Shown piece after piece: positions 13,756 through 43,224 of a DNA stretch of 64,000 nt. How positions within the stretch are numbered: position 1 is the stretch's first letter; every line of letters begins with the position of its first letter. The position numbers and the translations under genes are program-made. A model generated the notes under the pieces. It was given only the letters and a program-made list of their open reading frames with translations. It was not told the DNA's origin and ran no database searches. The stretch spans positions 10,362 to 74,361 of the forward strand of contig NZBG01000034.1 in the NCBI GenBank assembly GCA_002687795.1. The letters are read 5' to 3'. This stretch comes from Candidatus Woesearchaeota archaeon (GTDB lineage: Archaea; Nanobdellota; Nanobdellia; Woesearchaeales; GCA-2687795).

Positions 13756-13957
13756 CTCCTTTATGCTTTCTGTTCTTGTCTGGTGCTGAAAGGCATCTGA
13801 AGCAAGATAGGCATAGGGAAAATCATGGCTAAGCTGATGGTCCCATAGGTTTGCGCAGCCTGCCAGAAGCAGGGCAGAAAAGATTACAATAAGGTATATG
13901 TTTTCTGCTGTGTCATTAATTTTTATTTAAACCACCTTTCTGTGCTTCTATTATGCT

Positions 13958-15457
13958 TTATTTCCTGCATAACGCTATATTCCATACTGTTGAGCTTTTA
14001 ATCTTCACTTTGCTAAAATGCCTCTTTAGTAACCTTCTTAACTGGCCTGTTGTCCAGTTCTGAACATGGCCGGGAGTGTTTCCCAAGTCGCTAAGATAGC
14101 TCAGCCTTAAAACATTTGCAATCCTCCATAAAGGCTCTCTGGGCACACTGACAACCAAATATTTGCTGGTCACCTTGCTTATCTCTTCCAGCGCTTTATC
14201 CGGATGCTCCAGATGCTCAAGAAGCTCAGCTGCAACCACGCAGTTAAAAGAGTTTTCCTTGAATGGAATATCATACACTGAACATAGCATATACGGAAAC
14301 TTAGGATACAAGGATTTTGCTTTCCTGACTATATCCTCTTCCAGATCTGTGGCAATGATTTCCGCGTTTGTATATTTGCTGATCTCGTTTGTGATATGCC
14401 CTTCCCCGCAGCCCAACTCAAGAATTCTCTTTGCTTCTGTTCTTTTTATAACGCTTCCAATGTCTTTATAGAACTTATTAATCAAAAGCTTTACAGCAGG
14501 ATTCTTGCTTCTGTGCTTATTATAATAATTGCCTGCAATGTTCTTATACACCCTTTTTTTGTCTGAATCTGTGATGTTTAAGAAAAAGCCTACAACCCCT
14601 GGAATCAGAGTGATTATTGCAAACACAAGTATTGAATAGGAAAAGCCATAAGAAGGTGCTGCATTATAAAACCCAAAAAGTCCTATACTAGCAGATTCCC
14701 TTATGCCCAGCCCTGATATGGTCAATGGGATGCTACCTATAAGGATAGCTATAGGATGAGCAAACATCAGCCTGTAGTTAAGCTCAGGGTTAAGAGATTT
14801 AATAATCAGCAATGCTACAACCAGGCTTGACAGGTAATACATTATTGCAAGAAAATAAGCTGTCAACAAAGAGCGGCTGTTCTGCATGATGGATTTCATG
14901 CTGTTATAATAATCTTCTTTGTACTTATCAGGGAGCTTAAGGATATCAGATAAGAAAGATATCAGCTTTCTGTTGTTTAAGAGAACCAGAACAGTTATCA
15001 GCATTATTACAAAAAGGACTATCATAGCAAAAACAATAGTCTGCCTAAAGAATATAATCATAAAAACCAGGCTTAAAGTCACAAGAGCAACTGCATCCAG
15101 TATTTTGTCCCATAAAATGGTTGGTATGGTTTTTGTAAAGTCTCTCTTTAGAAAATAGGCTCTTGCCAGCTCGCCAGCTTTGGCGGGAGTAAAAAAAGAA
15201 TAGAATATGCCAATAAGTATTATCTTAAACCTTCTTATAAAACTAACCTTTATATCCAGGGCACTAAGGAGAACTCCCCATTTTATAACCCTGAGAGAAT
15301 ATATAATAAAGATCAGGAATACTGCAACAGAAATCAGCATAAGATTTGTATTCTTAAAAGTATCAACGATCTTATCTAAATCTATTTTGAAAATAAGATA
15401 CAACAACAATAATATTGTTATAACTAATTTTATAATAAAGGTTCTCCGTTTAAACAT
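13958..15457 (-). CDS. Fusion protein with an N-terminal UPF0104/LPG-synthase-TM (flippase-like) membrane domain and a C-terminal class I SAM-dependent methyltransferase
   Basis: N-terminal multi-TM domain beginning MFKRRTFIIKLVITILLLLYLIFKIDLDKI. C-terminal ILELGCGEGHITNEI ... VVAAELLEHLEHP, which carries MTase motif I and the post-I region. Confidence 0.6.
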   Translation of the reverse strand: MFKRRTFIIKLVITILLLLYLIFKIDLDKIVDTFKNTNLMLISVAVFLIFIIYSLRVIKWGVLLSALDIKVSFIRRFKIILIGIFYSFFTPAKAGELARAYFLKRDFTKTIPTILWDKILDAVALVTLSLVFMIIFFRQTIVFAMIVLFVIMLITVLVLLNNRKLISFLSDILKLPDKYKEDYYNSMKSIMQNSRSLLTAYFLAIMYYLSSLVVALLIIKSLNPELNYRLMFAHPIAILIGSIPLTISGLGIRESASIGLFGFYNAAPSYGFSYSILVFAIITLIPGVVGFFLNITDSDKKRVYKNIAGNYYNKHRSKNPAVKLLINKFYKDIGSVIKRTEAKRILELGCGEGHITNEISKYTNAEIIATDLEEDIVRKAKSLYPKFPYMLCSVYDIPFKENSFNCVVAAELLEHLEHPDKALEEISKVTSKYLVVSVPREPLWRIANVLRLSYLSDLGNTPGHVQNWTTGQLRRLLKRHFSKVKIKSSTVWNIALCRK

Positions 15458-15839
15458 TTTTAATTAATCCAATCATGTTGTAAATAATAAACTTAAACAG
15501 AAATAAGATACTTATAGAGGTAATAGAACTCCATAAAGCCGAGATATAGAGCATATCAACAAAAACATACATGAACCCAACATTTAATGTTGATAAGAGT
15601 ACTGTGGTTAATGTGTATTTAAGGAATTGTTTATGCATTAGATCTATTGCCACATACATGTAAAATCTTGCTATAAATAATACTACCACAATAGAGGTAG
15701 AGCCTATGACTGTATTAATACTTATTACATCAATGAGCAGCCACATAAGGAAAACATTAATTGCTGACCATGCACCACCCACTATGGAATATTTCAAAAA
15801 GTTCAGTCCATGTTTCTTGTAGTTCAACATTTTTATCAA
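15450..15839 (-). CDS. GtrA-family small membrane protein (polyprenyl-P-sugar flippase-like)
   Basis: 129 aa, 4 TM helices, N-terminus KYSIVGGAWSAINVFLMWLLID typical of GtrA. It overlaps the YfhO-like gene upstream by 4 bp. Confidence 0.55.
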   Translation of the reverse strand: MIKMLNYKKHGLNFLKYSIVGGAWSAINVFLMWLLIDVISINTVIGSTSIVVVLFIARFYMYVAIDLMHKQFLKYTLTTVLLSTLNVGFMYVFVDMLYISALWSSITSISILFLFKFIIYNMIGLIKNV

Positions 15840-18175
15840 CTCTTCTTAATATGAAACCCCTTTGATACCTTGAACCCAAAATAAATAATAACGAACAATA
15901 AAGTGATTATGGTTATAGCAAAGCCTGTTCTATACGAGCCTGGCTTAAACTCAAAAGTTATATTTTCTTCATCCCCCTCTAAGTAAACAGCTGAGATTAC
16001 CCCGTCAACATTATAAATGTTTTTAATTTTTCCGCCTGATTTGGCAGTCCATCCAGGAAACATTGAATACTTTTCGCTGAGAACAAGAAACCCTTTAGTG
16101 CCCTTATGCCTGCCCAGCTTTACAGCCTTTTTTTCAAAGCTTTCCGGCATGATATTCTTATCATCTACCTTAAGCAGCTTATCTTTGCCAAGGGATATAA
16201 ACATAGCATCAACACTTTCCCCAGGTACAGTGTCCTCGCCTTCTGTTATATCAGGCAACAGCATTCCTCCTGACTTTTTGAACTGCTCTAATATATATGC
16301 AGAGTTCATGTCAACAGAGCCCTGCGTAAGCACCAGGGCATTAAACCTCTTAAGCTCCTGGATACCATAATCATTAACCCTTTCTTTTCCTCTCACTATT
16401 ATCGTTGACTCAGGATTAAAGTTTTTATTTAGCATAAGCGAGTAAATAACCTTTGTTGCAGATTCTTTCTCTCCGATAACAAGTATGCCATTATTAAGAA
16501 TAAAGGCTCTTGGCAGGTACTGTTTGTTTTCATAGAGGTAAGGCCCATAGGCTTTTTGTATCTTGTCTATCTCAGGAAAACAGATTTCGCATTCTTCATA
16601 CTTCCTCACAAATTCAAAACCTGACAGGTTTAATGGCTGCCTTGATGTAAGATATTTTTGGTTAAGTATGCCCCAGAACTTGGCTGGCTGCTCATTGGCA
16701 ACAGACAAATAAACATTAAGGTACTCAGGCAGCCACATGGTATCATAGCCATATATATTCTCCAGCCTTAATGGGACAGTAAAAAACTCTGTGCCATAAT
16801 CTATGCCTATTGTCTCATAGCTGTGTATCCTGAAGTTCTCGTCCCTGATCTCCTTGCTTATGTCCTGCAGGACATGGTTGCTGCTTAAAACCTGGTTCAC
16901 ATCCTGCATCTTGGTTGCCCTGTAAGGGCTGTAGCCAAACACCATCAGGTTGAGTATTACCAGGGCTGATATAATCCCAAACAATATATATTCAGCTTTT
17001 TTGCCTTGTTTTCTTTTTATATTGGCCAAAAGATAATGGGTGCCTATGCCAGCTAAAGCAGAGCCTCCAAAGACATATATTATCAGCGTTCTCGTCAGAT
17101 ACCTGAAGCTGCTAAACCCAGGCACATATCTCCATAGAAGATAGAAAAGAAAAGAGCCGCTTACAAGGAATAATGATATGATTATAATGGAGGTAAAAAA
17201 GAGGGTGTATCTGCTCTTTAAGCCTTTATACACCCCAAAGGCTGCCAGCAGGAAAGCTATTATTCCCAGGTGGTATGCTCCTCCGGGCTTCCTTGCCTCA
17301 AAAAAACCTTCCATTGGCTGGACTAATGAGCTGAAGAAATCCTTGGGCGCTATCTTTCTCCCTGAGGCAACCTCCCATGGCCTTCTTTCCTTGCCGCTCA
17401 TGTCAAGGAACTCTTTGCCTGGAAGAACCCTCTGCAATGATAAGCCCAGGAATATTATGCTAATAACAGCGCTGACCAGCATGGCTTTGACTATCTTCTT
17501 CTGGAGATTTTTTCCAATCAGATATACCAGGATATATACGCCAAATATAAAAACTGTCCATAGGGTTGCCTTTAGGTCAGGCCCCACTCTCAACTGGAGC
17601 CCAAGCAATATTGCTGTGATTATGGAATACTTGAGCCAGTCCTTTGACTTAAGGGTTTTTATCATGAACAAAATGACCAGGGGCATAAAAACATAGCCAT
17701 TAAGAGTATTCAGGTGCCCCATCTGGAACCTTCCTATCACCCAGCCGTTAAACATATACACAAGAGCGGAAATAAAGGCTGGCTTTGTTTTTTTTGTGAT
17801 ATACAAAATAAGGAAATACATAGCAACCCCCGAGAGGAATATGTCAAGCACATAGCTTAGTTTCACTGCATAGGAAGGCGAGCCTGTCAGCAGCAATATC
17901 ACTCCGGTTATGCTGTCAACCCCTATAATATGTTTAAATAAAAAGGGATGGCCAGCAAAAAAATAGGGGCTCCATAAAGGCCAGAAATCTTTATATTCAA
18001 ATATGGACTGCTTTAAGTTTTCCACCCTGGGCATATAGAACCCAACACCGTCTCCCCAGTAAAAATAATCCAGCCTGAGGAAGGACAGGAAAAAGAGCAC
18101 AGTCATTAAGAGCAGAATGCCTACTAAGAAAATGCTTTCTTTATTGCTTTTTATTCTGTTAAGTATTTTTTGCAT
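15836..18175 (-). CDS. YfhO-like GT-C membrane glycosyltransferase (paralogue A)
   Basis: 779 aa with many N-terminal TM helices, a large extracytoplasmic domain and a single C-terminal TM. It is clearly paralogous to 24032..26374 along its full length. Confidence 0.5.
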   Translation of the reverse strand: MQKILNRIKSNKESIFLVGILLLMTVLFFLSFLRLDYFYWGDGVGFYMPRVENLKQSIFEYKDFWPLWSPYFFAGHPFLFKHIIGVDSITGVILLLTGSPSYAVKLSYVLDIFLSGVAMYFLILYITKKTKPAFISALVYMFNGWVIGRFQMGHLNTLNGYVFMPLVILFMIKTLKSKDWLKYSIITAILLGLQLRVGPDLKATLWTVFIFGVYILVYLIGKNLQKKIVKAMLVSAVISIIFLGLSLQRVLPGKEFLDMSGKERRPWEVASGRKIAPKDFFSSLVQPMEGFFEARKPGGAYHLGIIAFLLAAFGVYKGLKSRYTLFFTSIIIISLFLVSGSFLFYLLWRYVPGFSSFRYLTRTLIIYVFGGSALAGIGTHYLLANIKRKQGKKAEYILFGIISALVILNLMVFGYSPYRATKMQDVNQVLSSNHVLQDISKEIRDENFRIHSYETIGIDYGTEFFTVPLRLENIYGYDTMWLPEYLNVYLSVANEQPAKFWGILNQKYLTSRQPLNLSGFEFVRKYEECEICFPEIDKIQKAYGPYLYENKQYLPRAFILNNGILVIGEKESATKVIYSLMLNKNFNPESTIIVRGKERVNDYGIQELKRFNALVLTQGSVDMNSAYILEQFKKSGGMLLPDITEGEDTVPGESVDAMFISLGKDKLLKVDDKNIMPESFEKKAVKLGRHKGTKGFLVLSEKYSMFPGWTAKSGGKIKNIYNVDGVISAVYLEGDEENITFEFKPGSYRTGFAITIITLLFVIIYFGFKVSKGFHIKKS

Positions 18176-18250
18176 TTTAAATGAAAAATATCATTATCAA
18201 CCTAAGGCTGAAATCATGTTTCGCTCAGGTCTGGCTTTGCCTTAGACAAC

Positions 18251-19666
18251 CTATTGTATTCTAAAAAATAATTTTAAACCACCAAACAGGTTTTTTAAAT
18301 CTCCTAAAGATCTTATTCCGCCTATCTTTCTTAGGATATACTTTGGCCTCAAATAATATTCCCTGTATGCTCTTTTCTGCCAGTAAAGCACTCTCTCAGC
18401 ATCAAGACCAGGCAGGTTCAGGACAGGAACATTGTCCTTGGAAACTAATGTAAAGTCCTTCCAGTCATAACCCTCTCTGAAATATCCTTTTTCCTTTGCT
18501 ATATTATAGAAATCAGTTCCGGGGTATGGGGACGCTACCAGGAAAGCTGTTGTATCAGCGTCGAGCTCCTTGGCCAGCCTGATCGACTGTCTTATTGTCT
18601 CTTCTGTCTCCCCTATATAGCCAAACATGAAATTAACCGCCACATCAATGCCAACCTTTTTCACGAGCTTTACAGCCTCCTTTGCCTGCTCCAGGTTAAC
18701 ATTTTTCCTCATAGCCCTTAGGATATCTTTAGAGCCGCTTTCAATCCCAAACATGATTTTCTTGCATCCCGCGGATTTCATTTCCCTAAGCACATCCTCA
18801 GGGACAAAGTCTGTCCTTGACATGCAGACCCAGGCTATATTCAGCTTCCTTTTCTTGATTTCTCTGCATATCTCGATTGTCCTTTCTTTTAATGTTGTGA
18901 ACAGCTCATCATGAAAATTGAATTCCCTTAGATTATATTTTTTCACGCATGTTTCAATCTCATCCACAAGGTTCTTCGGGCTTCTTGCCCTGTATCTTCT
19001 TTTCCATATCACATTGGGAATGCAGTAAGTGCAGTTGAAGGGGCAGCCTCTTGATGACACTATTGAAGTGCCATGAAATTCGCTTACCTTTTTTGTGGGG
19101 GGTGCTGCATAAAGATGCTGCGGCATCAGGTCCCTCGCCGGAAAAGGCAATATATCAAGGTTATTTATAAATTCCCTTGGCCTTGTTTTTATTATCCTGC
19201 CGTTGTCCATAAAGACTATGCCCGCAACCTCATGCAGGTCCTTCTTTTTATCCAAAGCCTCAACCAGCTCGTAAAAGGTTATCTCTCCCTCGCCAGCCAC
19301 TATGAAGTCTATGGGCTCTATCTTTATTGTTTCTTCCGGAAACACTGAAGGATGAGGCCCACCGACTATTATTATTATATCTTTGGAAATCTTATTCTTG
19401 ATTATATTTGCTATATCTATCACCTGCTGAAACGCAGGAGTGGGTGCGGTCATAGCTATAATATCAGGGTTGATTTTTCTGATTTCCTTTTCCACCATTT
19501 CATATGACAGCTCAAGCGCCTCTGCATCAAGTATCTTACAGGAATGACTCGATTTCTCCCTAAGATAGGCTGCCAGATAGCCAAGATTAATAGGAGCGGA
19601 CTTGCCGCCATGCCCTTCCAGCCCCCCGTATTCAGTAAACGGCGGGTTCAAAAACAATACATTCAT
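18251..19666 (-). CDS. B12-binding radical SAM enzyme (class B)
   Basis: N-terminal Rossmann-like B12 domain (MNVLFLNPP...IIAMTAPTP). The radical SAM cluster motif is SSRGCPFNCTYC. Confidence 0.8.
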   Translation of the reverse strand: MNVLFLNPPFTEYGGLEGHGGKSAPINLGYLAAYLREKSSHSCKILDAEALELSYEMVEKEIRKINPDIIAMTAPTPAFQQVIDIANIIKNKISKDIIIIVGGPHPSVFPEETIKIEPIDFIVAGEGEITFYELVEALDKKKDLHEVAGIVFMDNGRIIKTRPREFINNLDILPFPARDLMPQHLYAAPPTKKVSEFHGTSIVSSRGCPFNCTYCIPNVIWKRRYRARSPKNLVDEIETCVKKYNLREFNFHDELFTTLKERTIEICREIKKRKLNIAWVCMSRTDFVPEDVLREMKSAGCKKIMFGIESGSKDILRAMRKNVNLEQAKEAVKLVKKVGIDVAVNFMFGYIGETEETIRQSIRLAKELDADTTAFLVASPYPGTDFYNIAKEKGYFREGYDWKDFTLVSKDNVPVLNLPGLDAERVLYWQKRAYREYYLRPKYILRKIGGIRSLGDLKNLFGGLKLFFRIQ

Positions 19667-19717
19667 TTAATTTCCCCCTTGTGTTTTTCCTAGTTAAGCA
19701 GCAGGCTTTAGCCTATG

Positions 19718-21151
19718 CTATAGCCTAAACATCCTCAGCCCTGCCTTGACCTTTCTTTTAAGTTCAGGTATGGACCTTACATTCATAAGCTTTTTTATTA
19801 TATAGCCTGGCCTTGTATAAAAATTCTTATAAGCATACATCAGCAACTCCATTAGTTCATCTCTTGTAAGATTCTCTGTCCATAAAGGAGCCCTGAAATC
19901 TTTGGAAGGGTTCTCTGCAAACTCTTTCCATACATCAGTTTTTATAATCCCTTTCTCTAATGCCATCTTGTAAAGCTCTGTTTCAGGAAAGGGCGTGGTC
20001 ACTGAGAAAGATACAAAGTCTGGTTTAAGCTGTTTTGCAAAGTCAATGGTTTTAAGTATCTCTTCCCTCCCTTCACCCGGGGAGCCAATCATAAAGTAGG
20101 CAAGGGTTTCTATCTTTGCCTGCTTTGTCCATCTGAAAGCATCCTTTACCTGTTTTAAAGTAATGCCCTTCCCCAGATTATCCAATACTTTTTGGTCAGA
20201 TGCCTCAACACCATAATGGATTCTTTCACAGCCTGCCTTCCTTAGCTTCAGCAGCATTTCCTTGTCAACCGTGTTGACTCTTGCCCTGATGTCCCAGCCA
20301 ATGTCTAGTTTTCTCCTGCAGATTTCATCACAGATATCAATAACTCTCTGCCTGTCTATTGTAAATGTGTCATCATATATAAGAAATTCTTTAATGCCCA
20401 TGCCAACGCATTCTTCCATTTCATCAACAACATTTTTTGCTGACCTTGCCCTGAACATCTTCCCTAAATGCGGCCTGTCGCAGTAAGTACATTTGTAAGG
20501 GCAGCCTCTGGAGGTTATCATCGTTGTGACCGGGCTCCTTTTGGCCAGAAGCGAGGTATATTTCTGGTGGGGAGTAAGTTTTCTCGCCGGGAAGGGCAGC
20601 ATGTCAAGGTTTTCAATAAAATCCCTTGCTCCTGTGTTTACAGCGTTTCCGTTGCTGTCTTTGAACACAATGCCTTTTATTTCCCTTAGTTTATCCTGGC
20701 TGCTGGTGTTGTCAAGGCTGCCAATGTTATTAAGCAGATCAGTAAACGCATGCTCACCTTCCCCGAGGATAACATAATCCACGCAGGAAAGGTTTATTGT
20801 TTCATATGGAAAGATGTTTGCATGGGGCCCGCCAAGGATAACCTTTATTCCAGGATTTATCTTTTTAACAATCTCAGCGGTCTTAATAACATCCATCAAT
20901 GTAAATGTCATTGCCTGTATGCCCACTATATCAGGCATGAAGTCTTCTATCTTATTTCCTATATCCTTATAATCCATTTCCTCGACCTGGGAATCCAGAA
21001 TCTCAATATGGTGCTTGCTATGCTCTATGGCATAAGAGGATAAGTACAAAAGCCCTAAAGGGGGGTTATAGCCCCTCTCTTCGTCGAGAAACATAGGGCT
21101 GTCTGACATGATCATGTCCTCCATTGGCGGGTTTATTAACAATACTTTCAT
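19718..21151 (-). CDS. B12-binding radical SAM enzyme (class B)
   Basis: MKVLLINPP ... B12 domain; the cluster motif is TSRGCPYKCTYC. Confidence 0.8.
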   Translation of the reverse strand: MKVLLINPPMEDMIMSDSPMFLDEERGYNPPLGLLYLSSYAIEHSKHHIEILDSQVEEMDYKDIGNKIEDFMPDIVGIQAMTFTLMDVIKTAEIVKKINPGIKVILGGPHANIFPYETINLSCVDYVILGEGEHAFTDLLNNIGSLDNTSSQDKLREIKGIVFKDSNGNAVNTGARDFIENLDMLPFPARKLTPHQKYTSLLAKRSPVTTMITSRGCPYKCTYCDRPHLGKMFRARSAKNVVDEMEECVGMGIKEFLIYDDTFTIDRQRVIDICDEICRRKLDIGWDIRARVNTVDKEMLLKLRKAGCERIHYGVEASDQKVLDNLGKGITLKQVKDAFRWTKQAKIETLAYFMIGSPGEGREEILKTIDFAKQLKPDFVSFSVTTPFPETELYKMALEKGIIKTDVWKEFAENPSKDFRAPLWTENLTRDELMELLMYAYKNFYTRPGYIIKKLMNVRSIPELKRKVKAGLRMFRL

Positions 21152-21168
21152 TTTGGTTGTAGTGAATA

Positions 21169-22524
21169 TTAGTGCGTTTTTATTAGTTTTTGTTTTGAGT
21201 ACTCTGCAAGCTCTTTCATGGTAATGACCCAGGCACTTCTGTCGTTTCTTATATACTTAAGAAAATCATGGTAAGCCTTTAGATTTTTCCTGTTTCCTGA
21301 AAGGTGGGACTCAGGATGGGTGTTTATCACAGCAACTCCCCCAACTTTTTTGATAAACTCCAGCTTATTGGCCCATGTCTTTACCATCTTTTCCATGTTA
21401 TAAGACCTGAACAGCAGCCTTGCATCCTGCGGGAGGGTTAAGGGAATCTCAACAAGGCCGTCTATCATATAAGGAAAGACTGTGCAGCAGCCGTTCCTTT
21501 CTGATATCTGTGAATCCTTCTCGGTGTCTACAGAACTTGAATCATAAAGATAGCCATTCTTTTCAAGAAGGCTGTACAGCCTCTCGCTCCTTAACAGGCA
21601 TGGGCTTCTAAAACCTTTTATCTTTAGCTTTTCTTTCAGCCTTGCCATGCTGTTAAACCTCTTTTCGATTTTTTTATCATCAAGAGATATCAGTTTGTTG
21701 TCATGGTTATAGCCATGGAGCAGTATCTCATCACCTTTCTTGATAAGGCTGTCTAACAATCTAAAGTCAATCTTATAGTGATTGGAGACTATGCTCCATG
21801 AAGAAACAAGACTATATTTCCTCTCGATCTTCGAGATAAGAGGAATTCTCTTAAACCCTCCCCCCGTCTCAACATCATGGCTTAAGCAGATAACATACTT
21901 CTTATTTTTCGGCCAGATATCCAGTTTTATTTTTCTGCCTTCTATGGCCTCTATGCATTTCAGCAGCACATGCCTTAATAGTTCCACAGACTTTTCAACA
22001 GGCCAGGAAGGAAAATTCTTTTCTTTCCTGAACATAAACAGGATTTTCTTCATAAGCTTTCTTGAACTGCCGGGCAGAATATGGAAATGGACAGGCAGGT
22101 ATGTATACAGCCTTCTCTTTGGCCTGTAATACCTTTCTTTCATAAGGAATTTTATTGTTTCCACAGGGTCGAAATTGAATATTATCCTGTTCCCTTTCTT
22201 GACTATAAGAGGAATATCCTGGTTCCTTATTCTGGAATGAAGGAGAACCTCGCCTTTGGTTTCATTGCGGTATATCTTTGGAATAAAAACATGAATATGC
22301 TCTTTCTCTTTTACCCATTCAGGCCTTATTTTGGGGTTTAATATCAGCCTTGCTGTTGTATTTCTGTATAGGACTGTATTCTTATTAACAAAAACACCAT
22401 GCCCATTGCCTTCTCCAAGAGGCTTTACTTTCCTGTAATACCTTTCCCAAAAATCTTTGATTGCCATATTACTAAGCCCTGCTTTGAAAAACTCCGCTCT
22501 TTTTCTTTCTTCCCAGGACAACAC
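21169..22524 (-). CDS. Polysaccharide deacetylase (CE4/NodB-like) family protein
   Basis: Motifs LSHDVETGGG, HGYNHD and VINTHPESH. It is paralogous to 62032..63366. Confidence 0.45.
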   Translation of the reverse strand: MLSWEERKRAEFFKAGLSNMAIKDFWERYYRKVKPLGEGNGHGVFVNKNTVLYRNTTARLILNPKIRPEWVKEKEHIHVFIPKIYRNETKGEVLLHSRIRNQDIPLIVKKGNRIIFNFDPVETIKFLMKERYYRPKRRLYTYLPVHFHILPGSSRKLMKKILFMFRKEKNFPSWPVEKSVELLRHVLLKCIEAIEGRKIKLDIWPKNKKYVICLSHDVETGGGFKRIPLISKIERKYSLVSSWSIVSNHYKIDFRLLDSLIKKGDEILLHGYNHDNKLISLDDKKIEKRFNSMARLKEKLKIKGFRSPCLLRSERLYSLLEKNGYLYDSSSVDTEKDSQISERNGCCTVFPYMIDGLVEIPLTLPQDARLLFRSYNMEKMVKTWANKLEFIKKVGGVAVINTHPESHLSGNRKNLKAYHDFLKYIRNDRSAWVITMKELAEYSKQKLIKTH

Positions 22525-23917
22525 TGTTAAAGAAGGCTATACTGTTTCTGATGCCGGCTTTTAACCCTGCCCTTGTCAGATTATACCATATTCTCCTGGG
22601 AGTGAAGTAAAATATCAGGAACCCAAGCCTTTGGTAATTAATGATGTCCTTTCTCTTCAGGTTGTTTACTTCAATCACCGGCGTGCTGTACCTGATGTAC
22701 TTAGAATAATCCTCAGAAATCAGCTTTAAGCCATTCTCTCCTTTCTTTGCCATCTCATAAAGAGGAGTGCCGGGGTAGGGCACGTTAATATAGAGGTAAA
22801 GCTGGTCGCAGTTTTTTAGCCTTCTCATAAACCTTAAGGTTTTCATAACAGTTTTCTTGGTTTCCCCCGGATGGCCTATTATTGCTGATGCTCTTGTTTC
22901 CAGCCCTAAACCTTTTGATATCCTAAATGCGTCTTTTATCTGCTGGAAGCTTACTTCCTTGTTAATCTTTTTTAAGATCTCTTCATCTCCTGTCTCAACA
23001 CCATAAGAGACCCTGACAAGACCGGCTTTTTTCATTAAAGACAGTATATCCTTGTCAACACAGTCAACCCTTGTATGGCATTCCCATGTTATCCTTATGT
23101 TTCTCCTTATTATTTCATTGCAAAGCTCTGCCACCACCTTTTTGTTTGCTGTCATTGTAAGGTCCACAAAGTAAAAATGCTTTATGCCAAGAGCAGTGCA
23201 TTCTTCAATCTCATCGCAAACATTCTCCTTGCTTCTTACCCTGAAGGAAGGGAACAAGGCAGTCTCAGGGCAGTAAAGGCATTTAAAGGGGCAGCCTCTT
23301 GTGCTCATGATTGTTGAGATTCTTACAAGGCCTTTGCCCACCACGCTCATCCTGTACCTGTCCAGGTCAAGGAGCTTTCTGTTAGGAAAAGGCAGCTTAT
23401 CAAGATAATTGTTAATGGACCTTGGCTCAGTCTTAACAATTTCCCCAGCCTTGTTCTTGTAGATTATGCCTCTTATATCCCTTATTTCCTTATTCTGCTC
23501 TATAGCATTAACCAGCTCAGGGAATGTCTCTTCCCCTTCCCCTATAACGCCATAGTCAAAGATAGATGATTTGATAAAAGGGTCTCTGTTAAGCACTGTA
23601 ATATGCGGCCCTCCTATAGCCAGAACTGCATTGGATATGTTTTTTATATGCTGGGCAAGCCTGATTGTCTCATTTATCTGGGGCAGTGTGCATGTAAAGC
23701 CTATGAGCTGCGGGTTCCATGACTTTATAATATTGTCAAGCTCTTCCATTGAATCAATAGCTTCCGAGTCAATAATCTTTACTTCATGGCCATGTTTTTC
23801 AAGAGCTGAAGCAAGGTAACAGAGGCCAAGAGGCGGGTGTAATACAGCAACCTCTGCAGCTGCAACAAAGTTTCCATATACAGATTTCCATGTTGGGTTA
23901 ATAAGCAAAACTTTCAT
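22472..23917 (-). CDS. B12-binding radical SAM enzyme (class B)
   Basis: MKVLLINPTW ... B12 domain; the cluster motif is STRGCPFKCLYC. Confidence 0.8.
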   Translation of the reverse strand: MKVLLINPTWKSVYGNFVAAAEVAVLHPPLGLCYLASALEKHGHEVKIIDSEAIDSMEELDNIIKSWNPQLIGFTCTLPQINETIRLAQHIKNISNAVLAIGGPHITVLNRDPFIKSSIFDYGVIGEGEETFPELVNAIEQNKEIRDIRGIIYKNKAGEIVKTEPRSINNYLDKLPFPNRKLLDLDRYRMSVVGKGLVRISTIMSTRGCPFKCLYCPETALFPSFRVRSKENVCDEIEECTALGIKHFYFVDLTMTANKKVVAELCNEIIRRNIRITWECHTRVDCVDKDILSLMKKAGLVRVSYGVETGDEEILKKINKEVSFQQIKDAFRISKGLGLETRASAIIGHPGETKKTVMKTLRFMRRLKNCDQLYLYINVPYPGTPLYEMAKKGENGLKLISEDYSKYIRYSTPVIEVNNLKRKDIINYQRLGFLIFYFTPRRIWYNLTRAGLKAGIRNSIAFFNSVVLGRKKKSGVFQSRA

Positions 23918-24031
23918 TTTTAGCTGGTTATTTAGTAAAAAACCTCCTCTATAAAAATATTTATTACATAATAGTGACCATTCCAGATTCCTTTATAAAA
24001 CTTATTGTAATTTGTCAGAAAAAGGCTTGAT

Positions 24032-26374
24032 TTAGCCTGTAACCTGTCTTCTAGAACCATAAGCCAATAACAGAATTACCAAAACCAAGGTAACAGAAAA
24101 TATCACAAGCCCTTTCTTAAAAGAGCCAGGCTGGTATTTAAAGAGCAATTCACCTGATTCTCCTTCAAGGTACACTGCAGAGTTCATCCCATTAGCCCTA
24201 TAAATATTCCTTTCTTTATTATCTATCTCTGGCTCCCAGCCCTGGAACATATGGAATTTCTCTGAGAGCACTAACCAGCCAACCTCTTCATCAAGCTCCA
24301 TAATAATTTTATTGGGTGAATAATAGTTTATATCAATTTCTTTAACATCCCTGTAATCGCCTTTAAAAGAGCTTAGCAAAGAATCTATTCTCTCCTGGGA
24401 TATGGAATCTTCACCCTTGACTATGTTTGGCAGGATAATGCCTCCCGAGCTATCATACTGATTTAGTATAAAGAGCGAGCCCTGGTCTATAGACCCCTGG
24501 GTTAAAACAACAGCATTAAATCTTTTAAGGAAATCCAGTTCATAGTTATTCACCTTTTCATAAGCCATAACTATCACAGTGTTAGAAGGGTCAAAATTTT
24601 CATTTGCCATTAATGCATATGCTATCCCATCTACTGCATCCTTGCTGCCCAAAATCAAGATGCTGTGCTCAGCAAGATAAGCCCTTGGCAGATAAAGCTC
24701 ATTATAATACAGGTAAGGGCCATTAATGCCAAAGTCGGTGTTGCGGTCTTCGTATTTATTGCATAATTCAAAGTTATCAAATTTAGTTACAAACCTTAAC
24801 CCTGTAATGTTAACAGGTTCATTTGAGTAAAGGTATTTTGTGTTAAGCATGCCATAGAACTTTGCTGGGAAAGAGTGCGCTATCCCTAGGAAGGTATACA
24901 TCTCAGGAATCCATGTGCCAATCCCGCCGTAAAGCATCTGCAGGTCAAGCAAAGAAATCATGGCAGGGGCAACCCCTGCATGGCTTTTTGTTTTAATATT
25001 GCTTATCCTGAAAACTCCTTCTTCTTTGCTTAGGTTTTGCAGAAGGTAATTATTCTGGAGGCAGGAATTAAAGAACTGGCCTCTCTCAGAGTTTATCCTC
25101 CCGCCTTTTATATACCCTGAAACAAAAAACAGGTCAGCTATCACAATGGCAGCAACTAAGAGATATAGCAGATTAATATGTTTTTTGTTGAATCTTTTGC
25201 CTAACTTATTAAACATAACAGAGCAGCCAATGCCTATTAACACAGAGGTGGCAAAACAGTACAGGTACATGCTCCTGTCCAGGTGATGAAGCCTGTTGAA
25301 CATCGGTACAAATTTCCAGAAAAGATACCAGAAAGGTGTTGGAGCTGCAATAAGCAGGGTGAGGATAATAAGCAGAACAAGGCTCATAACAGTTCTCTTT
25401 TTCCAGAGAGATAAGGAGAACAAAAGCAGGAAGAATCCTGAGAATCCCAATTTAATAATATGGTTGTGCGGGATATTTCTTATGCTCCCTTCTATAGGAA
25501 CCAAGAGCGCCTGGAAAAAGTCAGGAAAGTCTTTGATATTATTTTCCAGGTTGGCGCCGTCAATGCTTCTTTCATAGCTAAAGACATCAACCTGTTTCTT
25601 GCTGCTTGCTTCATTATATTCCAAGAGAGGAAATAACTTAATAGAGAACAGCCCGAGAAACACAAATAATATTACTATGCTTACTAAAGCAACCTTGACT
25701 AATCTTTTAGAGATATTTTTTGTGAAAGTATATACAAAAAAAAACGATAAGAAAAGGAGAACCATAAACAATGAGAAGTCATAACCATTGCCGAGAAACT
25801 GTATAGACAGCAGTATCCCTGTTATAACAGCGTTCTTTAACCATTCTTTTTTTGTGACTGACCTCCATAAAAAGAGAAATATCAGGGGGGCCATGAAATA
25901 TACATGCATTGTTTCCGTGGGGTCGCCCATAGCCCTGACTGCAAAGGGCCCGAACATATAGAAAAGGGCTGAGATAAAAGCAAACCTTGACTTAATATTG
26001 AGGTTGAGCATAAGGATATACATGAACAGCCCGGAAACTAATATGCCAAGAAGCTGTGAGACATTAAATATGCCTATAGGAGAAGATACCAGCAAAGAAA
26101 CCAAAGATGCCATGGAAAAAATAGGAAAGGTTGGATGCGCAAAAAAGGGAAACCCTCCTTGGGAATGGGGATACCATAAAGGGAACTGATGATATTCAAG
26201 AACAGATTTTCTTACAAATGAAAGGGGGCCTACGCTGCCGCTTAAAGGGTCGCCTCTCCTGACATTTGTGAAGCTCAGGTAATCCCAGTATCTTGAACAA
26301 GTGAGAGCTATAAATATTAAGATTATAATTATATGTATCTTGTTCTTTACAAAAAAGTCTTTTATTTTTTTCAT
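24032..26374 (-). CDS. YfhO-like GT-C membrane glycosyltransferase (paralogue B)
   Basis: 780 aa with the same architecture as 15836..18175. The C-terminal WLVLSEKFHMFQGWEP...NSAVYLEGESGELLFKYQPGSFKKG stretch aligns with paralogue A. Confidence 0.5.
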   Translation of the reverse strand: MKKIKDFFVKNKIHIIIILIFIALTCSRYWDYLSFTNVRRGDPLSGSVGPLSFVRKSVLEYHQFPLWYPHSQGGFPFFAHPTFPIFSMASLVSLLVSSPIGIFNVSQLLGILVSGLFMYILMLNLNIKSRFAFISALFYMFGPFAVRAMGDPTETMHVYFMAPLIFLFLWRSVTKKEWLKNAVITGILLSIQFLGNGYDFSLFMVLLFLSFFFVYTFTKNISKRLVKVALVSIVILFVFLGLFSIKLFPLLEYNEASSKKQVDVFSYERSIDGANLENNIKDFPDFFQALLVPIEGSIRNIPHNHIIKLGFSGFFLLLFSLSLWKKRTVMSLVLLIILTLLIAAPTPFWYLFWKFVPMFNRLHHLDRSMYLYCFATSVLIGIGCSVMFNKLGKRFNKKHINLLYLLVAAIVIADLFFVSGYIKGGRINSERGQFFNSCLQNNYLLQNLSKEEGVFRISNIKTKSHAGVAPAMISLLDLQMLYGGIGTWIPEMYTFLGIAHSFPAKFYGMLNTKYLYSNEPVNITGLRFVTKFDNFELCNKYEDRNTDFGINGPYLYYNELYLPRAYLAEHSILILGSKDAVDGIAYALMANENFDPSNTVIVMAYEKVNNYELDFLKRFNAVVLTQGSIDQGSLFILNQYDSSGGIILPNIVKGEDSISQERIDSLLSSFKGDYRDVKEIDINYYSPNKIIMELDEEVGWLVLSEKFHMFQGWEPEIDNKERNIYRANGMNSAVYLEGESGELLFKYQPGSFKKGLVIFSVTLVLVILLLAYGSRRQVTG

Positions 26375-26411
26375 TCGCAGAGAGTATTTTCCTTAACTGT
26401 GAGAATAGTAC

Positions 26412-26433
26412 CTACGCAACTGGCGTTGCGTAG
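26412..26433. promoter_or_regulatory. GC-rich perfect hairpin/palindrome (9-bp arms CTACGCAAC/GTTGCGTAG, loop TGGC) in a divergent intergenic region
   Basis: The palindrome is directly visible. It sits in an unusually GC-rich patch of the 237-bp divergent promoter region, and a partial copy TTGCGTAG recurs at about 26508. Confidence 0.4.
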
Positions 26434-26611
26434 CTACATCCTCCCCATTATCGCAAATGAAGTATCGAGGGCCCACCCCTAACAATGGACATTTAAACAT
26501 GCTACTTGCGTAGATACTGGAGTATTAGATAATCATATAAATATTTGTTGATGAATTGACTGTCATACCACAAAAACATTAATAAATAACTGCTCAATCT
26601 ATTCACTAAGA

Positions 26612-27343
26612 ATGTATAAAGGGAAGAGAATAGCAATAGTGATTCCTGCATATAATGAGGAGAAGCTTATAAAGCCGACAGTGGAAGGAGTGCCTGATTA
26701 TATAGACAGCATAATCGTAATAGACGACGGCAGCAAGGACAGAACTGCAGAGGTTGTCATAGGCATCAGGGATGAAAGGATAAGGCTGATAAGGCACCAT
26801 AAAAATCTTGGGCTTGGCTCAGCAATCATAACAGGCTACAAGAACGCCTTGGAAAACGGCTTTGATGCTGCTGTTGTTGTAGGCGGTGATAACCAAATGG
26901 ACCTCAGCGAGCTGCCAAAGTTTCTCGAGCCTATTATCATGGACAATGCTGATTATGTCAAGGGCAACAGGTTTCTTAACAGGTCTTTCCTGAAGATGCC
27001 TCCTGCAAGGTTCATGGGCAATATACTTCTTTCCGCTATCGAGAAGCCAGCCACAGGCTATTGGAACATATTCGATATGCATGACGGCTATACTGTAATA
27101 AACAAAAAAGCCCTTAAGGCAGTTGACTGGGACAATGCATGGACAGGCTATGCATATAATGTTGACTTTCTTGCAAGGCTGAACATCCATAGAATGAAGG
27201 TCAAAGACATTCCAAGACAGGCTATCTATCTTAAAGGGGAGCGTCAGTCGCAGATAAAAACACTAAGGTATATGCTGATGGCAATACCTTTGATAATAAG
27301 GACCTGGGTATGGAGAATCGAAAAGAAATATCTTAAGGCCTGA
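26612..27343 (+). CDS. Glycosyltransferase family 2, Dol-P/polyprenyl-P sugar synthase-like (DPM1/GtrB-like), lacking the C-terminal TM helices
   Basis: KRIAIVIPAYNEEKLIKPTVEGV...IIVIDDGSKDRTAEV, a GT-A fold with a DxD motif. Confidence 0.7.
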   Translation: MYKGKRIAIVIPAYNEEKLIKPTVEGVPDYIDSIIVIDDGSKDRTAEVVIGIRDERIRLIRHHKNLGLGSAIITGYKNALENGFDAAVVVGGDNQMDLSELPKFLEPIIMDNADYVKGNRFLNRSFLKMPPARFMGNILLSAIEKPATGYWNIFDMHDGYTVINKKALKAVDWDNAWTGYAYNVDFLARLNIHRMKVKDIPRQAIYLKGERQSQIKTLRYMLMAIPLIIRTWVWRIEKKYLKA

Positions 27344-27350: not shown

Positions 27351-28304
27351 CTATTTGCCTTCCTGTTCAGCAACCCATTTCTTTGTAAGCTCCAGCCCCT
27401 TCTCAAATGAAAGCTTTGCTTTAAACCCCAATGCCTCAATCTTAGCTGTATCAGGGATAGGCTTCATATTCTCACCCGACCTTGCTTTCCCATAGATTGG
27501 CTTCATTGATTTATCTTCAGCATACTTATCTATAGCCATGCCTGCCAGCTCGTTTATGCTAACTCTTGCTTTTGAGGCAACATTGTAATCCTCGCCTATT
27601 GCTTTTTTTTCTTTTGCCAAGAGCAATGTTGCATCAACATCGTCAGCCACATAAGTAAAACATCTTATTTGGTTTCCTCCTGAGAAGATGACAGGCGGCT
27701 TTTTGTTAAGCACCCTTGACAGGAAAATGCTGACCACACCGGCTTCGCCGCTGTAATCCTGCCTTGGCCCGTATACATGGAAGTATCTTAACACTGAAAC
27801 CTTCAGCCCAAATTCCTTTGCAAAATGCATGCAATACTTCTCTCCCGCAAGCTTGCTAATGCCATAGATGGTACTGGGGTTCTTAGCATGGTTCTCCGGC
27901 ATTGGCTGCTCTGATGAGCCGAAAACAGAGCCTGTTGAGGCATGAACAATTCTTGCATCAGAATCCCTTGCTGCCTCAAGAACATTGAACGTGCCAACCA
28001 CGTTGGTCATCACATCTGTCCTGGGATCTTTAAGGGAAACCACCAGCTTCGAGGCTGCTTCATTAAACACAAAATCAGCGTTCTGGATAAGCTCTTTAAC
28101 AGTCTCCTGGTTTCTGATATCCCCTTCAACAACCTTAAGGCGCCCATCGTTCTCCAGATGTTCCAGGTTTTTCCTTGAGCCACCAACAAAATTATCAAGA
28201 ACAGTAACCTTCTCAGCCCCTTCTTCAAGTAGCCTGTCAACAAGATGCGAGCCTATAAACCCAGCTCCCCCTGTCACAACTGCTGCCTTGTTTCTGAAAA
28301 ACAT
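27351..28304 (-). CDS. NAD-dependent sugar epimerase/dehydratase (extended SDR)
   Basis: AAVVTGGAGFIGSHLVDRLLEEG and the YGISKLAGE (YxxxK) catalytic motif. Confidence 0.8.
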   Translation of the reverse strand: MFFRNKAAVVTGGAGFIGSHLVDRLLEEGAEKVTVLDNFVGGSRKNLEHLENDGRLKVVEGDIRNQETVKELIQNADFVFNEAASKLVVSLKDPRTDVMTNVVGTFNVLEAARDSDARIVHASTGSVFGSSEQPMPENHAKNPSTIYGISKLAGEKYCMHFAKEFGLKVSVLRYFHVYGPRQDYSGEAGVVSIFLSRVLNKKPPVIFSGGNQIRCFTYVADDVDATLLLAKEKKAIGEDYNVASKARVSINELAGMAIDKYAEDKSMKPIYGKARSGENMKPIPDTAKIEALGFKAKLSFEKGLELTKKWVAEQEGK

Positions 28305-28306
28305 TC

Positions 28307-42975: not shown

Positions 42976-43174
42976 AAAAAAGAATACCTACAAATTCACT
43001 AAAAAATTCCTTTGGAATTTTTGGTGTCCCAGAAATTTCTATGTAATTTCTCAGGACATTTGTGGGTTAGATACTGGGTATCTTTTTTGGTCGCCATCCT
43101 CCCACTTCAAGCATGTTCTATTATTTAAAGGAAACACATAACTTCAGTTGTAGGAGGATGTCATTTCAAAAAAG

Positions 43175-43217: not shown

Positions 43218-43224
43218 TTTAAAG

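Follow-up and report, generated by a model that had tools for sequence, protein, structure and literature searches.

What are two large membrane proteins reminiscent of the bacterial YfhO glycosyltransferases doing in the genome of a DPANN archaeon, and do they form, with a GtrA-like flippase candidate and a GT2 lipid-phosphate-sugar synthase encoded nearby, a bacterial-style machinery that operates independently of the oligosaccharyltransferase AglB, as the original prediction for this locus had it? DPANN archaea live attached to their hosts and, to our knowledge, experimental knowledge of how they build their surface is almost nil. In the window analysed here, a stretch of 64,000 nucleotides, the lipid-carrier glycosylation cluster is real and fairly ordinary, comprising two YfhO-type GT-C proteins, a GtrA protein and lipid-phosphate sugar synthases, and it is both larger and wired differently than had been supposed.

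The glycosylation island

These genes belong to a surface-glycosylation island that spans 38 kb in the genome of a marine Woesearchaeota (DPANN) archaeon; the first YfhO-like protein is 100% identical to a protein labelled Candidatus Woesearchaeota, and Tara contigs as well as other contigs of marine origin have the same gene order. The four ORFs on which the prediction was built are all present at the positions assigned to them. Between and beyond the two YfhO-like genes lie three B12 radical-SAM genes and the genes for a DUF2334-like deacetylase and a third GT-C protein, all absent from that prediction. From 26374 down to 11497 the intergenic gaps are at most 114 nt, an operon-like packing. 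The features considered are as follows.

507..3968, + strand: AglB oligosaccharyltransferase, 1153 aa (PF02516 STT3, E = 6e-46)
6331..9402, - strand: candidate acceptor, a secreted protein of 1023 aa with a signal-like N-terminus and 76 N-X-S/T sequons
9608..11188, + strand: DUF6541 polytopic membrane protein, 526 aa (PF20176, 33.7 bits, cut-off 29)
12268..13926, - strand: third GT-C-fold membrane protein (AF2 fold), listed ORF of 495 aa
13958..15457, - strand: fusion, 499 aa, of an LPG_synthase_TM (UPF0104/PplT, MprF-flippase-like) membrane domain (PF03706) and a SAM methyltransferase (Methyltransf_11)
15450..15830, - strand: GtrA-family 4-TM protein (PF04138), 126 aa from ATG (129 aa from TTG at 15839)
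15836..18175, - strand: YfhO-family GT-C glycosyltransferase, paralogue 1, 779 aa (PF09586 above threshold)
18251..19666, - strand: B12-binding radical SAM enzyme 1 (PF02310 + PF04055)
19718..21151, - strand: B12-binding radical SAM enzyme 2 (PF02310 + PF04055; HpnJ/BchE-like, under cut-offs)
21169..22524, - strand: DUF2334/WbmS-like predicted deacetylase (PF10096 24.2 bits, PF22537 23.8 bits, both just under cut-offs)
22472..23917, - strand: B12-binding radical SAM enzyme 3 (PF02310 + PF04055; BchE/ApyD/HpnJ-like, under cut-offs)
24032..26374, - strand: YfhO-family GT-C glycosyltransferase, paralogue 2, 780 aa (by homology to paralogue 1)
26612..27343, + strand: soluble DPMS/PpgS-like GT2, 243 aa (PF00535, 83 bits)
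27351..31015, - strand: nucleotide-sugar genes, namely epimerase/dehydratase, DegT aminotransferase, hexapeptide acyltransferase and GFO/IDH/MocA oxidoreductase (Pfam matches)
37115..38026, - strand: ArnC/PgfS/GtrB-type GT2 with two C-terminal TM helices, 303 aa (PDB and NCBIfam matches)

Elsewhere in the window there are a Wzx-like flippase gene (38135-39640) and genes for UbiA and a CDP-alcohol phosphatidyltransferase (45.9-50.1 kb).

Two YfhO-family paralogues

The two ~780-residue proteins are indeed paralogous over their full length, with 34% identity over 770 positions (E = 2e-128). The predicted topology, in which a polytopic N-terminal part is followed by an outside domain and a last TM helix at the C-terminus, is borne out for both: Kyte-Doolittle hydropathy and the AF2 model agree on TM helices up to residue ~415, a soluble domain at ~415-750 and a single terminal TM helix at 752-770. 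Copy 1 matches PF09586 with 31.7 bits (gathering score 28.5), a partial match that covers profile positions 94-388 of 835; copy 2 has no match of its own in the Pfam profile search and is placed in the YfhO family via its full-length identity to copy 1. Precomputed matches to PF09586 and to PF10131 occur in 9 and 3, respectively, of 27 close homologues. Alignment of the archaeal family by hhalign with 17 reference proteins, metagenomic bacterial-type members that all match PF09586, gave a probability of 100% and E = 2.1e-78 over 658 columns, extending from residues 9-767 on one side to 9-751 on the other and thus including the C-terminal outside domain and the terminal TM helix. DUF2298 or another unrelated family is ruled out for the large proteins by the PF09586 match and this end-to-end alignment. 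The original prediction, which was to fall if the large proteins belonged elsewhere and the small ORF escaped the GtrA profile, survives on both points, since the YfhO family is confirmed and GtrA profile detection succeeds (see below).

Archaeal and bacterial members have the motifs PLWxP..G.P, FR...R and LVLSE...GW in common. Also common to them is an acidic residue in the first extracytoplasmic loop (position 42 of copy 1), D in 25 of the 30 aligned archaeal and bacterial sequences and E in the other 5, and kept as Asp in copy 2; this conservation suggests a catalytic role. The proteins have the GT-C membrane fold, their best structural matches being STT3, PglB, AglB and AftD. The PDB structure searches yielded no YfhO structure and, the closest solved folds being oligosaccharyltransferases and AftD, the type of donor is not readable from the fold; by analogy with their family, the YfhO-like proteins would take a sugar from a polyprenyl-phosphate donor and pass it to an extracytoplasmic acceptor. 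In an NJ tree the copy-2 orthologues form a separate clade, and the nearest outgroup of the GT-C genes is bacterial.

GtrA, UPF0104 and further membrane proteins

The small ORF downstream of copy 1, taken from the outset to encode a GtrA protein, scores 26.7 bits against PF04138 (cut-off 26.1), in its C-terminal half only, and has four hydrophobic segments; in a full HMMER scan 43 of 46 homologues match the profile (best E = 1.8e-10). The 4-bp overlap formerly attributed to the YfhO and GtrA genes exists if translation begins with TTG at 15839 (TTGA with the YfhO stop) but not if it begins with ATG at 15830, which has the purine-rich AAGAAGAG 9 nt upstream, was chosen by gene callers in four independent assemblies and leaves a 5-nt spacer; under either start the two genes are tightly packed. 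In the related locus L008 the called GtrA gene overlaps a YfhO-like gene by 17 nt and its product, a 45%-identical orthologue, is encoded between the two YfhO-like genes; a GtrA gene lies between both paralogues in six relatives. The function of GtrA proteins is worded with caution also in bacteria, where they are termed "predicted" or "putative" flippases (PMC8035078).

Directly after the GtrA gene, with an 8-bp overlap, comes that of the UPF0104-methyltransferase fusion (PF03706, 139 bits; Methyltransf_11, 60 bits; TIGR00374 "flippase-like domain", 93 bits). The product of the third GT-C gene is probably ~552 aa long, from a non-canonical start; its AF2 model (pLDDT 91.3) finds only GT-C proteins among the top 30 Foldseek matches in the PDB (PglB, E = 3e-8, STT3, AglB, ArnT), hhalign relates it to the YfhO-like family (94%, E = 1.4e-7) and its D44 is invariant. 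The DUF6541 protein is a probable further GT-C, its orthologues having weak PTPS_related or PMT_2 matches; it occurs in 11 of 35 related loci, in a conserved block orf495-orf127-orf112-orf526.

Lipid-phosphate sugar synthases

Polyprenyl-phosphate-type GT2 enzymes are present, as expected, and they are two. The 303-residue protein matches ArnC (9hwj, E = 2e-49) and GtrB (5ekp, E = 4e-41) in the PDB over residues 3-291, including the two C-terminal TM helices, and the NCBIfam models of ArnC (190 bits) and PgfS (171 bits). The 243-residue protein, encoded divergently on the strand opposite to copy 2 and 237 bp from it, has no predicted TM segment and finds its best PDB match in the catalytic domain of the Pyrococcus furiosus Dol-P-Man synthase (5mlz, E = 3e-11, residues 3-225) and its best NCBIfam match in PpgS (74.5 bits, under the cut-off). 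Neither GT2 reaches an NCBIfam equivalog cut-off. The gene of the 303-residue protein lies 11 kb from the YfhO-like genes, with other sugar genes and one opposite-strand gene in between.

Radical-SAM enzymes and deacetylase

Of the B12 radical-SAM trio, the first enzyme has its best NCBIfam match in HpnJ (261 bits, cut-off 578) and its best matches among PDB entries in AprD4 (E = 1.6e-32) and OxsB (E = 1e-21); the second shares 39% identity with a protein encoded in the neighbourhood of the YfhO-like genes of L008. That locus also encodes a 36%-identical homologue of the predicted deacetylase and is the sole other locus with one; against the GlcNAc-PG deacetylase model the predicted deacetylase of the window gives E = 1.3e-3, under the curated cut-off.

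Conservation of the neighbourhood

Of the related DPANN loci, 35 had 6 kb or more of flanking sequence (some counts being over ~41 loci in all). In these 35, orthologues of the ArnC/PgfS/GtrB-type GT2 (37-60% identity) are found beside YfhO-like genes in 17 and the 243-residue type in only 3. Judged from this distribution, the GT2 partner of the YfhO-like genes across the family is the 37115-38026 gene rather than the adjacent one, and the role of partner synthase originally assigned to the latter is not supported. GtrA is encoded in 8 of the 35 loci (10 of ~41 overall), and a UPF0104/LPG_synthase_TM protein, mostly adjacent to copy 1, in ~20 of ~41, which makes it the commoner neighbour. The third GT-C is found in 18 of the 35 loci, and methyltransferase, B12 radical SAM and both YfhO-like paralogues together in 14 each. 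The expected synteny of the three-component system is preserved as a linkage of synthase, flippase candidate and GT-C, but the linkage with the 243-residue GT2 is kept in the 3 loci only. These genes define a DPANN-restricted subfamily of YfhO-type enzymes with an old duplication, a plausible adjacent acceptor and a conserved neighbourhood of ArnC/PgfS-type GT2, UPF0104 flippase-like protein, methyltransferase and further GT-C proteins.

Proposed pathway and acceptor

The cluster probably specifies a multi-component, lipid-carrier-dependent pathway that adds sugars at the outer face of the membrane. At the cytoplasmic face a GT2 would charge dolichyl (polyprenyl) phosphate with one sugar residue taken from a nucleotide sugar. 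The ArnC/PgfS/GtrB-type enzyme is the main candidate for this step, and the DPMS/PpgS-like GT2 may provide a second donor. The lipid-linked sugar may be tailored by the deacetylase, the flippase-fused methyltransferase and possibly the B12 radical-SAM enzymes and would then cross the membrane via the UPF0104/PplT-like domain and/or the GtrA protein, after which the two YfhO-family paralogues and the third GT-C, presumably using the conserved first-loop Asp/Glu in catalysis, would take it off the lipid phosphate and attach it to an acceptor.

On grounds of adjacency only, the likeliest acceptor is a glycan or the polypeptide of the neighbouring sequon-rich surface protein, whose 76 sequons compare with 24.5 ± 4.2 in 2000 shuffles, ~12 standard deviations above the mean; the other proteins of the window have 0.2-1.0 sequons per 100 aa. 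Modification of a surface protein would be analogous to the finishing of the Haloferax N-glycan by AglS or to the action of PgfM1/PgfM2 on streptococcal adhesins. AglB, which has WWDFG at residue 742, is itself encoded in the island, its gene and that of GtrA being 11.5 kb apart, and the YfhO-type enzymes could equally decorate N-glycans already attached by AglB.

As a speculative and rather improbable elaboration, the three radical-SAM enzymes, the deacetylase and the flippase-fused methyltransferase might edit a dolichyl-phosphate-bound amino sugar at the cytoplasmic face, by C-methylation or by a ring contraction of the HpnI/HpnK/HpnJ or calditol-synthase kind, before dedicated YfhO paralogues install it on the cell surface. 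Sugar tailoring at the level of the lipid carrier would then be of a new kind, and would take place in an organism presumably scavenging its cobalamin; the recurrent B12 radical-SAM association is the sole element of the locus that could be truly new chemistry.

Alternative targets, synthases and donors

Could the target be a membrane lipid or lipoglycan instead? The GT2, the deacetylase and the UPF0104 protein would then make and expose an amino-sugar glycolipid in the manner of GpgSDF/HexSDF, to be extended outside by the GT-C proteins. UPF0104 is the phospholipid-flippase domain of MprF, the GpgSDF system of P. aeruginosa, in which a glycosyltransferase acts together with a COG3233 deacetylase and a UPF0104 protein, makes GlcN-phosphatidylglycerol (PMC12713373), and bacterial YfhO glycosylates a lipid-anchored polymer (PMC8035078); the weak DUF2334 and GlcNAc-PG deacetylase matches and the UbiA and CDP-alcohol phosphatidyltransferase genes point the same way. 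However, these matches are under curated cut-offs, the deacetylase gene occurs in only one related locus, GpgS is a GT4 and not a GT2, and AglB, nucleotide-sugar genes and the sequon-rich protein dominate the island, so that we regard a lipid target as unlikely.

Rather less credit is given to the self-contained CsbB/GtcA/YfhO-type triad of the original prediction, with the 243-residue GT2 as synthase, GtrA as flippase and the YfhO copies decorating an envelope polymer independently of AglB. The position of this GT2 beside copy 2, its resemblance to Dol-P-Man synthase and PpgS, and the placement of GtrA directly after copy 1 here and between the paralogues in the six relatives speak for it; against it are the 3 versus 17 loci of the two GT2 types, the lack of GtrA in about three quarters of the loci as opposed to the common occurrence of UPF0104 proteins, and the fact that the window showed no genes for a teichoic-acid-like polymer.

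The same GT2 and GtrA could be related in another way. Rv3632 anchors or activates PpgS, and the GtrA-like protein might likewise serve to anchor or activate the 243-residue GT2, the two being the membrane and catalytic parts of a Dol-P-sugar synthase that is split between separate genes, with flipping left to the UPF0104 domain. The Pfam name of PF04138 ("GtrA/DPMS transmembrane domain"), the lack of TM helices in this GT2 and its best matches to the P. furiosus DPMS and PpgS fit such a split, and GtrA is encoded in 2 of 4 related loci with this GT2 type (L027, L044), numbers too small for statistics. On the other hand, the two genes are 11 kb apart on opposite strands, and 8 of 10 GtrA loci, again a small number, have the TM-anchored ArnC-type GT2 instead, which leaves this arrangement doubtful to a similar degree. 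Finally, use by the YfhO-like proteins of diphosphate-linked oligosaccharides, as O-oligosaccharyltransferases, ligases or polymerases, is suggested by the matches to STT3, PglB, AglB and AftD and by the Wzx-like flippase gene but is most improbable, given that characterised YfhO-family members use C55-P-monosaccharides (PMC8035078) and that the conserved neighbours are ArnC/PgfS-type single-sugar lipid-phosphate synthases.

Relation to known systems

The lipid-carrier pathway preferred here has several precedents, among them CsbB/GtcA/YfhO and other bacterial systems (PMC8035078). The Firmicute CsbB/GtlA - GtcA - YfhO/GtlB systems likewise combine a GT2 synthase, a GtrA-family protein and a YfhO-family GT-C of the same overall architecture. 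Their acceptor, teichoic acid, is not expected in archaea, where dolichyl phosphate would replace undecaprenyl phosphate as the carrier; moreover, the nearest bacterial PF09586 proteins are only 20-25% identical to the archaeal ones, which have an extra alpha/beta subdomain (~residues 600-690) and lack a TM insert found in the bacterial set.

The Pgf system of Streptococcus mutans (PgfS, PgfM1, PgfE, PgfM2) similarly has two YfhO paralogues, 38.5% identical to each other as compared with 34% here, a GtrB-type GT2, a sugar epimerase and a surface protein as target (bioRxiv 10.1101/2022.10.10.511621). The match between the 303-residue GT2 and the PgfS model is a full-length one, but its 171 bits are far under the equivalog cut-off of 500 and this GT2 is therefore not an orthologue; furthermore, Pgf is a bacterial four-gene operon without the GtrA, UPF0104, radical-SAM, deacetylase and third GT-C genes present here.

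In the Arn pathway (ArnC - ArnD - ArnE/F - ArnT) a synthase, a deacylase, a flippase and a GT-C act on a lipid-phosphate amino sugar. ArnC is the best solved and NCBIfam match of the 303-residue GT2 and a deacetylase-like gene is found in the operon; yet the latter is DUF2334-like rather than an ArnD gene, neither flippase candidate is related to ArnE/F, the type of the GT-C is YfhO and not ArnT/PMT_2, and lipid A is absent from archaea.

Within the archaea, neighbourhoods of GT2, UPF0104 (arCOG00899) and GT-C genes were predicted to serve S-layer glycosylation, and the AglD fusion is a further precedent (Makarova 2015, PMC5898192). As in these, and in Haloferax AglD/AglJ - AglR - AglS, where Dol-P-Man donates the last mannose outside the cell, a Dol-P-sugar-type synthase, an MprF-flippase-like PF03706 protein and a GT-C-like enzyme are encoded together here. 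Here, however, the GT-C is of the YfhO family, UPF0104 is fused to a methyltransferase and not to a GT2, and GtrA is present as well. Of the "bacterial-style" label there remains the bacterial outgroup of the GT-C genes; neither this label nor independence from AglB is established, since the archaeal module had already been predicted and AglD/AglS work in the same manner. The "three-component" logic of bacteria, haloarchaea and eukaryotes also extends to these reduced DPANN genomes, for which the cluster offers concrete targets for heterologous tests. In L008, too, the module is preceded by genes for the aminotransferase, acyltransferase and oxidoreductase, which are 38-58% identical to those of the window.

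The two YfhO-type paralogues

The four ORFs on which the original prediction was built are all present at the positions claimed for them, and the two large ones, copy 1 (15836..18175, minus strand, 779 aa) and copy 2 (24032..26374, minus strand, 780 aa), are indeed full-length paralogues, sharing 34% identity and 55% similarity over 770 aligned positions (E 2e-128). Hydropathy analysis yields the topology that had been proposed for them, with hydrophobic segments up to residue ~415, a soluble portion extending to ~750 and a last TM segment at 752-770 and 755-773 in the two proteins; the AlphaFold2 model of copy 1 agrees with this layout.

Copy 1 matches the YfhO profile PF09586 just above the gathering score (31.7 vs 28.5 bits) and, this being the sole Pfam family matched, its assignment to DUF2298 or to an unrelated family was rejected. 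Copy 2 searched by itself against Pfam gave no match, and the sequence of copy 1 found no meaningful match among PDB chains. When the archaeal alignment was compared as a profile with 17 bacterial-type proteins, each matching PF09586, the two aligned with 100% probability (E 2e-78); the 658 aligned columns run from residue 9 to 767 and hence take in the outside domain and the final helix. Common to both sets are the signatures PLWxP...G.P in the first outer loop, FR...R, and LVLSE...GW near the C-terminus, and position 42, directly after TM1, carries an acidic D or E in all 30 sequences. The proposed kinship of the large proteins with YfhO, like the detection of the GtrA ORF by its own profile, therefore holds on the strength of the PF09586 and PF04138 matches and of the profile comparison.

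The close homologues of copy 1 form a DPANN-specific set of 27; behind these, nearly every next-best relative is a bacterial-type protein annotated with PF09586 (20-30% identity). The NCBI name "YfhO family protein" is already carried by at least one related MAG protein. The window belongs to the genome of a marine Candidatus Woesearchaeota (DPANN), copy 1 having 100% identity to a protein labelled with this taxon; the gene order of the window recurs on Tara Oceans and other marine contigs. In a crude neighbour-joining tree, built without bootstrap, the copy-2-type sequences all fall in one clade and the whole DPANN family stands apart from the bacterial outgroup, so that the duplication, judged from these sequences, looks old; both copies have been retained.

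Gene arrays around the copies

The copies belong to a first, closely packed array of minus-strand genes that extends from copy 2 to a small membrane ORF at 11497 and has no gap longer than 114 nt; its members between and after the copies (radical SAMs, deacetylase, UPF0104 fusion and third GT-C) had been overlooked in the original prediction.

First array, in order, all on the minus strand
24032..26374, copy 2
B12 radical SAM
DUF2334/WbmS-like deacetylase
B12 radical SAM
B12 radical SAM
15836..18175, copy 1
15450..15830, GtrA
13958..15457, LPG_synthase_TM (UPF0104, MprF-flippase-like) domain fused to a SAM methyltransferase
12268..13926, 495-aa membrane ORF (third GT-C)
two small membrane ORFs

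A second array lies upstream, from 38026 to 27351.

Second array, in order, all on the minus strand
37115..38026, ArnC/PgfS/GtrB-type GT2 with two C-terminal TM helices
36459-37103, nitroreductase/BluB-like protein
fourth B12 radical SAM
another GT2
radical SAM
538-aa protein, unknown
oxidoreductase/acyltransferase/aminotransferase trio and an epimerase

The best NCBIfam match of the nitroreductase-family protein is BluB (75 bits, below cut-off); its gene and that of a B12 radical SAM have 35 nt in common, and a BluB-like nitroreductase adjoins the ArnC-type GT2 or a YfhO-like gene in 5/35 related loci (L006, L013, L016, L023, L040).

The GtrA ORF and the GT2 enzymes

The 4-bp overlap said to couple the YfhO and GtrA genes exists in the longest ORF, where a TTG start lies within TTGA, and disappears with the ATG found nine nucleotides further on, which is preceded by AAGAAGAG and leaves a spacer of 5 nt to copy 1; this ATG is the choice of the gene callers in four independent assemblies. 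The GtrA assignment itself was borne out, with PF04138 matching the C-terminal half only (26.7 bits vs a cut-off of 26.1). Searching by word index with the GtrA protein recovered the protein itself and nothing more, but 96 relatives emerged when 1.84 billion representatives were scanned in full with HMMER, PF04138 being matched by 43 of the 46 that were aligned.

The 243-aa GT2 (26612..27343, plus strand) is divergent and soluble as had been claimed, lying on the opposite strand 237 bp from copy 2 and having no predicted TM segment; it is the sole plus-strand gene between the two arrays. The 303-aa GT2 that heads the second array matches the PgfS and ArnC models over their full length.

Conservation of the neighbourhood

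The comparison drew on four contigs reached through homologous proteins and on 43 loci that a scan of the GTDB species representatives had yielded; their ORFs were called and searched with the window proteins. The counts listed refer to the 35 loci that are non-redundant and flanked by 6 kb or more.

Genes beside YfhO-like genes (number of the 35 loci)
ArnC-type GT2 orthologue (37-60% identity), 17/35
243-aa GT2 type, 3/35
GtrA, 8/35
SAM methyltransferase, 14/35
B12 radical SAM, 14/35
third GT-C, 18/35
DUF6541 membrane protein, 11/35
two YfhO-like paralogues together, 14/35

The YfhO-like gene is usually preceded, at short distance and on the same strand, by the ArnC-type GT2. GtrA occurs in 10 of all the loci, in six of them between the two paralogues. 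A BLAST-based count placed UPF0104 proteins in 7 loci, never together with GtrA; an iterated HMM search raised this to ~20 of ~41 loci, mostly abutting copy 1, these counts being lower bounds because the UPF0104 gene of locus L007 known from precomputed Pfam escaped the search. The idea that GtrA and UPF0104 are mutually exclusive, interchangeable flippases was dropped, both being found in L021, L032 and the window.

The 43 GTDB loci are all DPANN-labelled except for "uncultured Methanosarcinales" MAGs, which have the DPANN-type gene set, and one short contig (7.7 kb) titled "Bacteroidota bacterium"; these odd titles are found among L010, L013, L016-L018, L021, L025, L028, L031, L033, L038-L040, L046 and L022, and probably reflect placeholder taxonomy or mis-binning, not true distribution.

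The third GT-C

The 495-aa ORF is ~55 residues shorter than its 99 homologues, and the missing TM1 and conserved ASDAFQHQ loop (invariant Asp) can be read in frame upstream, where no ATG, GTG or TTG is available. An ATA (or ATT) located 5 nt after a GGTGG motif suggests that the product may begin at a non-canonical start; alternatively, an indel could have occurred in the AAAA run that follows an out-of-frame ATG. The sequence of the start region is identical in four independent assemblies. Modelled from the ATA (pLDDT 91.3), the extended protein has PglB, STT3, AglB, DPY19, ArnT and similar proteins as its top 30 Foldseek matches, and its family is a distant relative of the YfhO-like one, so that on the model the product is predicted to be another GT-C enzyme.

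The window holds at least six GT-C-type membrane proteins, namely AglB (507-3968), a DUF6541 protein (9608-11188), the third GT-C (12268-13926, minus strand), the two YfhO-like proteins (15836-18175 and 24032-26374) and a PMT_2 protein (58896-60470), a remarkably high number for a DPANN archaeon with a reduced genome.

Proposed pathway and acceptor

The best-supported reading, drawn from family membership, fold and synteny, is a dolichyl-phosphate-sugar-dependent glycosylation outside the membrane. A GT2 would charge the lipid carrier inside, where the carrier-bound sugar would perhaps be deacetylated and methylated, a UPF0104-type and/or GtrA-type protein would carry the lipid-linked sugar across the membrane and the three GT-C enzymes would pass the sugar to the acceptor. 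The original interpretation is partly supported: its YfhO, GtrA and GT2 components are retained, but not the linkage of the 243-aa GT2, kept in only three of the loci counted. As rival explanations, GtrA could be a detached synthase anchor, and transfer could take place at the oligosaccharide level.

To our knowledge, teichoic acids are not expected in archaea. A 1023-aa secreted protein (6331-9402, minus strand) with a signal-like N-terminus, which matched no family in Pfam or NCBIfam, has 76 N-X-S/T sequons vs 24.5 +/- 4.2 in shuffles (~3 times the expectation, z about 12), the other window proteins examined having 0.2-1 per 100 aa; from its sequence it is likely the major surface (S-layer-type) glycoprotein. 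Since AglB (WWDFG at residue 742) is encoded beside this sequon-rich neighbour, we favour surface glycoprotein glycans or residues as the predicted target of the glycosylation system over the rival acceptor, a lipid or lipoglycan.

AglB is adjoined by a GT9 (heptosyltransferase-family) gene (4004-5131, plus strand), and in locus L008 (15092-18101) genes for a HAD phosphatase, a GHMP kinase, a SIS isomerase and a transaldolase come after the module and recall the synthesis of heptose, hints that these archaeal glycans may contain this sugar.

Relation to known systems

The window system adds a new, DPANN-specific member to a kind of system already known and does not represent a new kind. Its closest functional analogue with two YfhO-type paralogues is Streptococcus mutans Pgf (PgfS, PgfM1, PgfE, PgfM2), in which these are 38.5% identical to each other (bioRxiv 10.1101/2022.10.10.511621); it shares the triad logic of Firmicute CsbB/GtcA/YfhO (PMC8035078), the whole synthase/deacylase/flippase/transferase logic of ArnC/D/EF/T and the first three of these steps with GpgSDF (PMC12713373). 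Makarova et al. 2015 predicted that UPF0104 proteins act as flippases in glycosylation, their genes lying together with AglD-like GT2 and GT-C-like ones, AglD being a GT2-UPF0104 fusion, or, in another typical context, with those of a polysaccharide deacetylase and a glycosyltransferase (PMC5898192); UPF0104-methyltransferase fusions are among the known architectures (bioRxiv 10.1101/2022.03.11.483950). Literature searches on PF03706 and on Woesearchaeota glycosylation returned nothing specific to the window system.

As for the recurrent B12 radical-SAM enzymes, three encoded in the operon with the copies and a fourth nearby, HpnJ and BchE match them best among curated models, though far below cut-offs, and among solved structures AprD4 and OxsB, both sugar-modifying, are their best relatives. 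A GT2, a deacetylase and an HpnJ-like radical SAM occurring together bring to mind the route by which HpnI/HpnK/HpnJ make a cyclitol head group, and also calditol synthase (PMC13459092), both being resemblances only; by such analogy, an editing of the sugar at the carrier level by these enzymes is conceivable, if rather improbable.

Other regions of the window

A second small module (58896-63366, minus strand) comprises a PMT_2-type GT-C (524 aa), a SAM methyltransferase (236 aa) and a deacetylase (DUF2334/Polysacc_deac_1, 444 aa), the second of its kind in the window; the module recalls the pair of methyltransferase and deacetylase genes with which L008 begins. The region 41818-51612 encodes two radical SAM/SPASM proteins, a UbiA prenyltransferase, a CDP-alcohol phosphatidyltransferase and two PHP-domain proteins, genes that from their sequences look lipid-related, which would be unusual for DPANN archaea, generally thought, as far as we know, to be without lipid synthesis. 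Finally, at 56000-58200 the G+C content falls to 0.315 vs about 0.40 elsewhere; the dip encloses a nucleotidyltransferase of Pol-beta type (57172-58160) and a small ORF, which together resemble a toxin-antitoxin pair or a mobile insertion.
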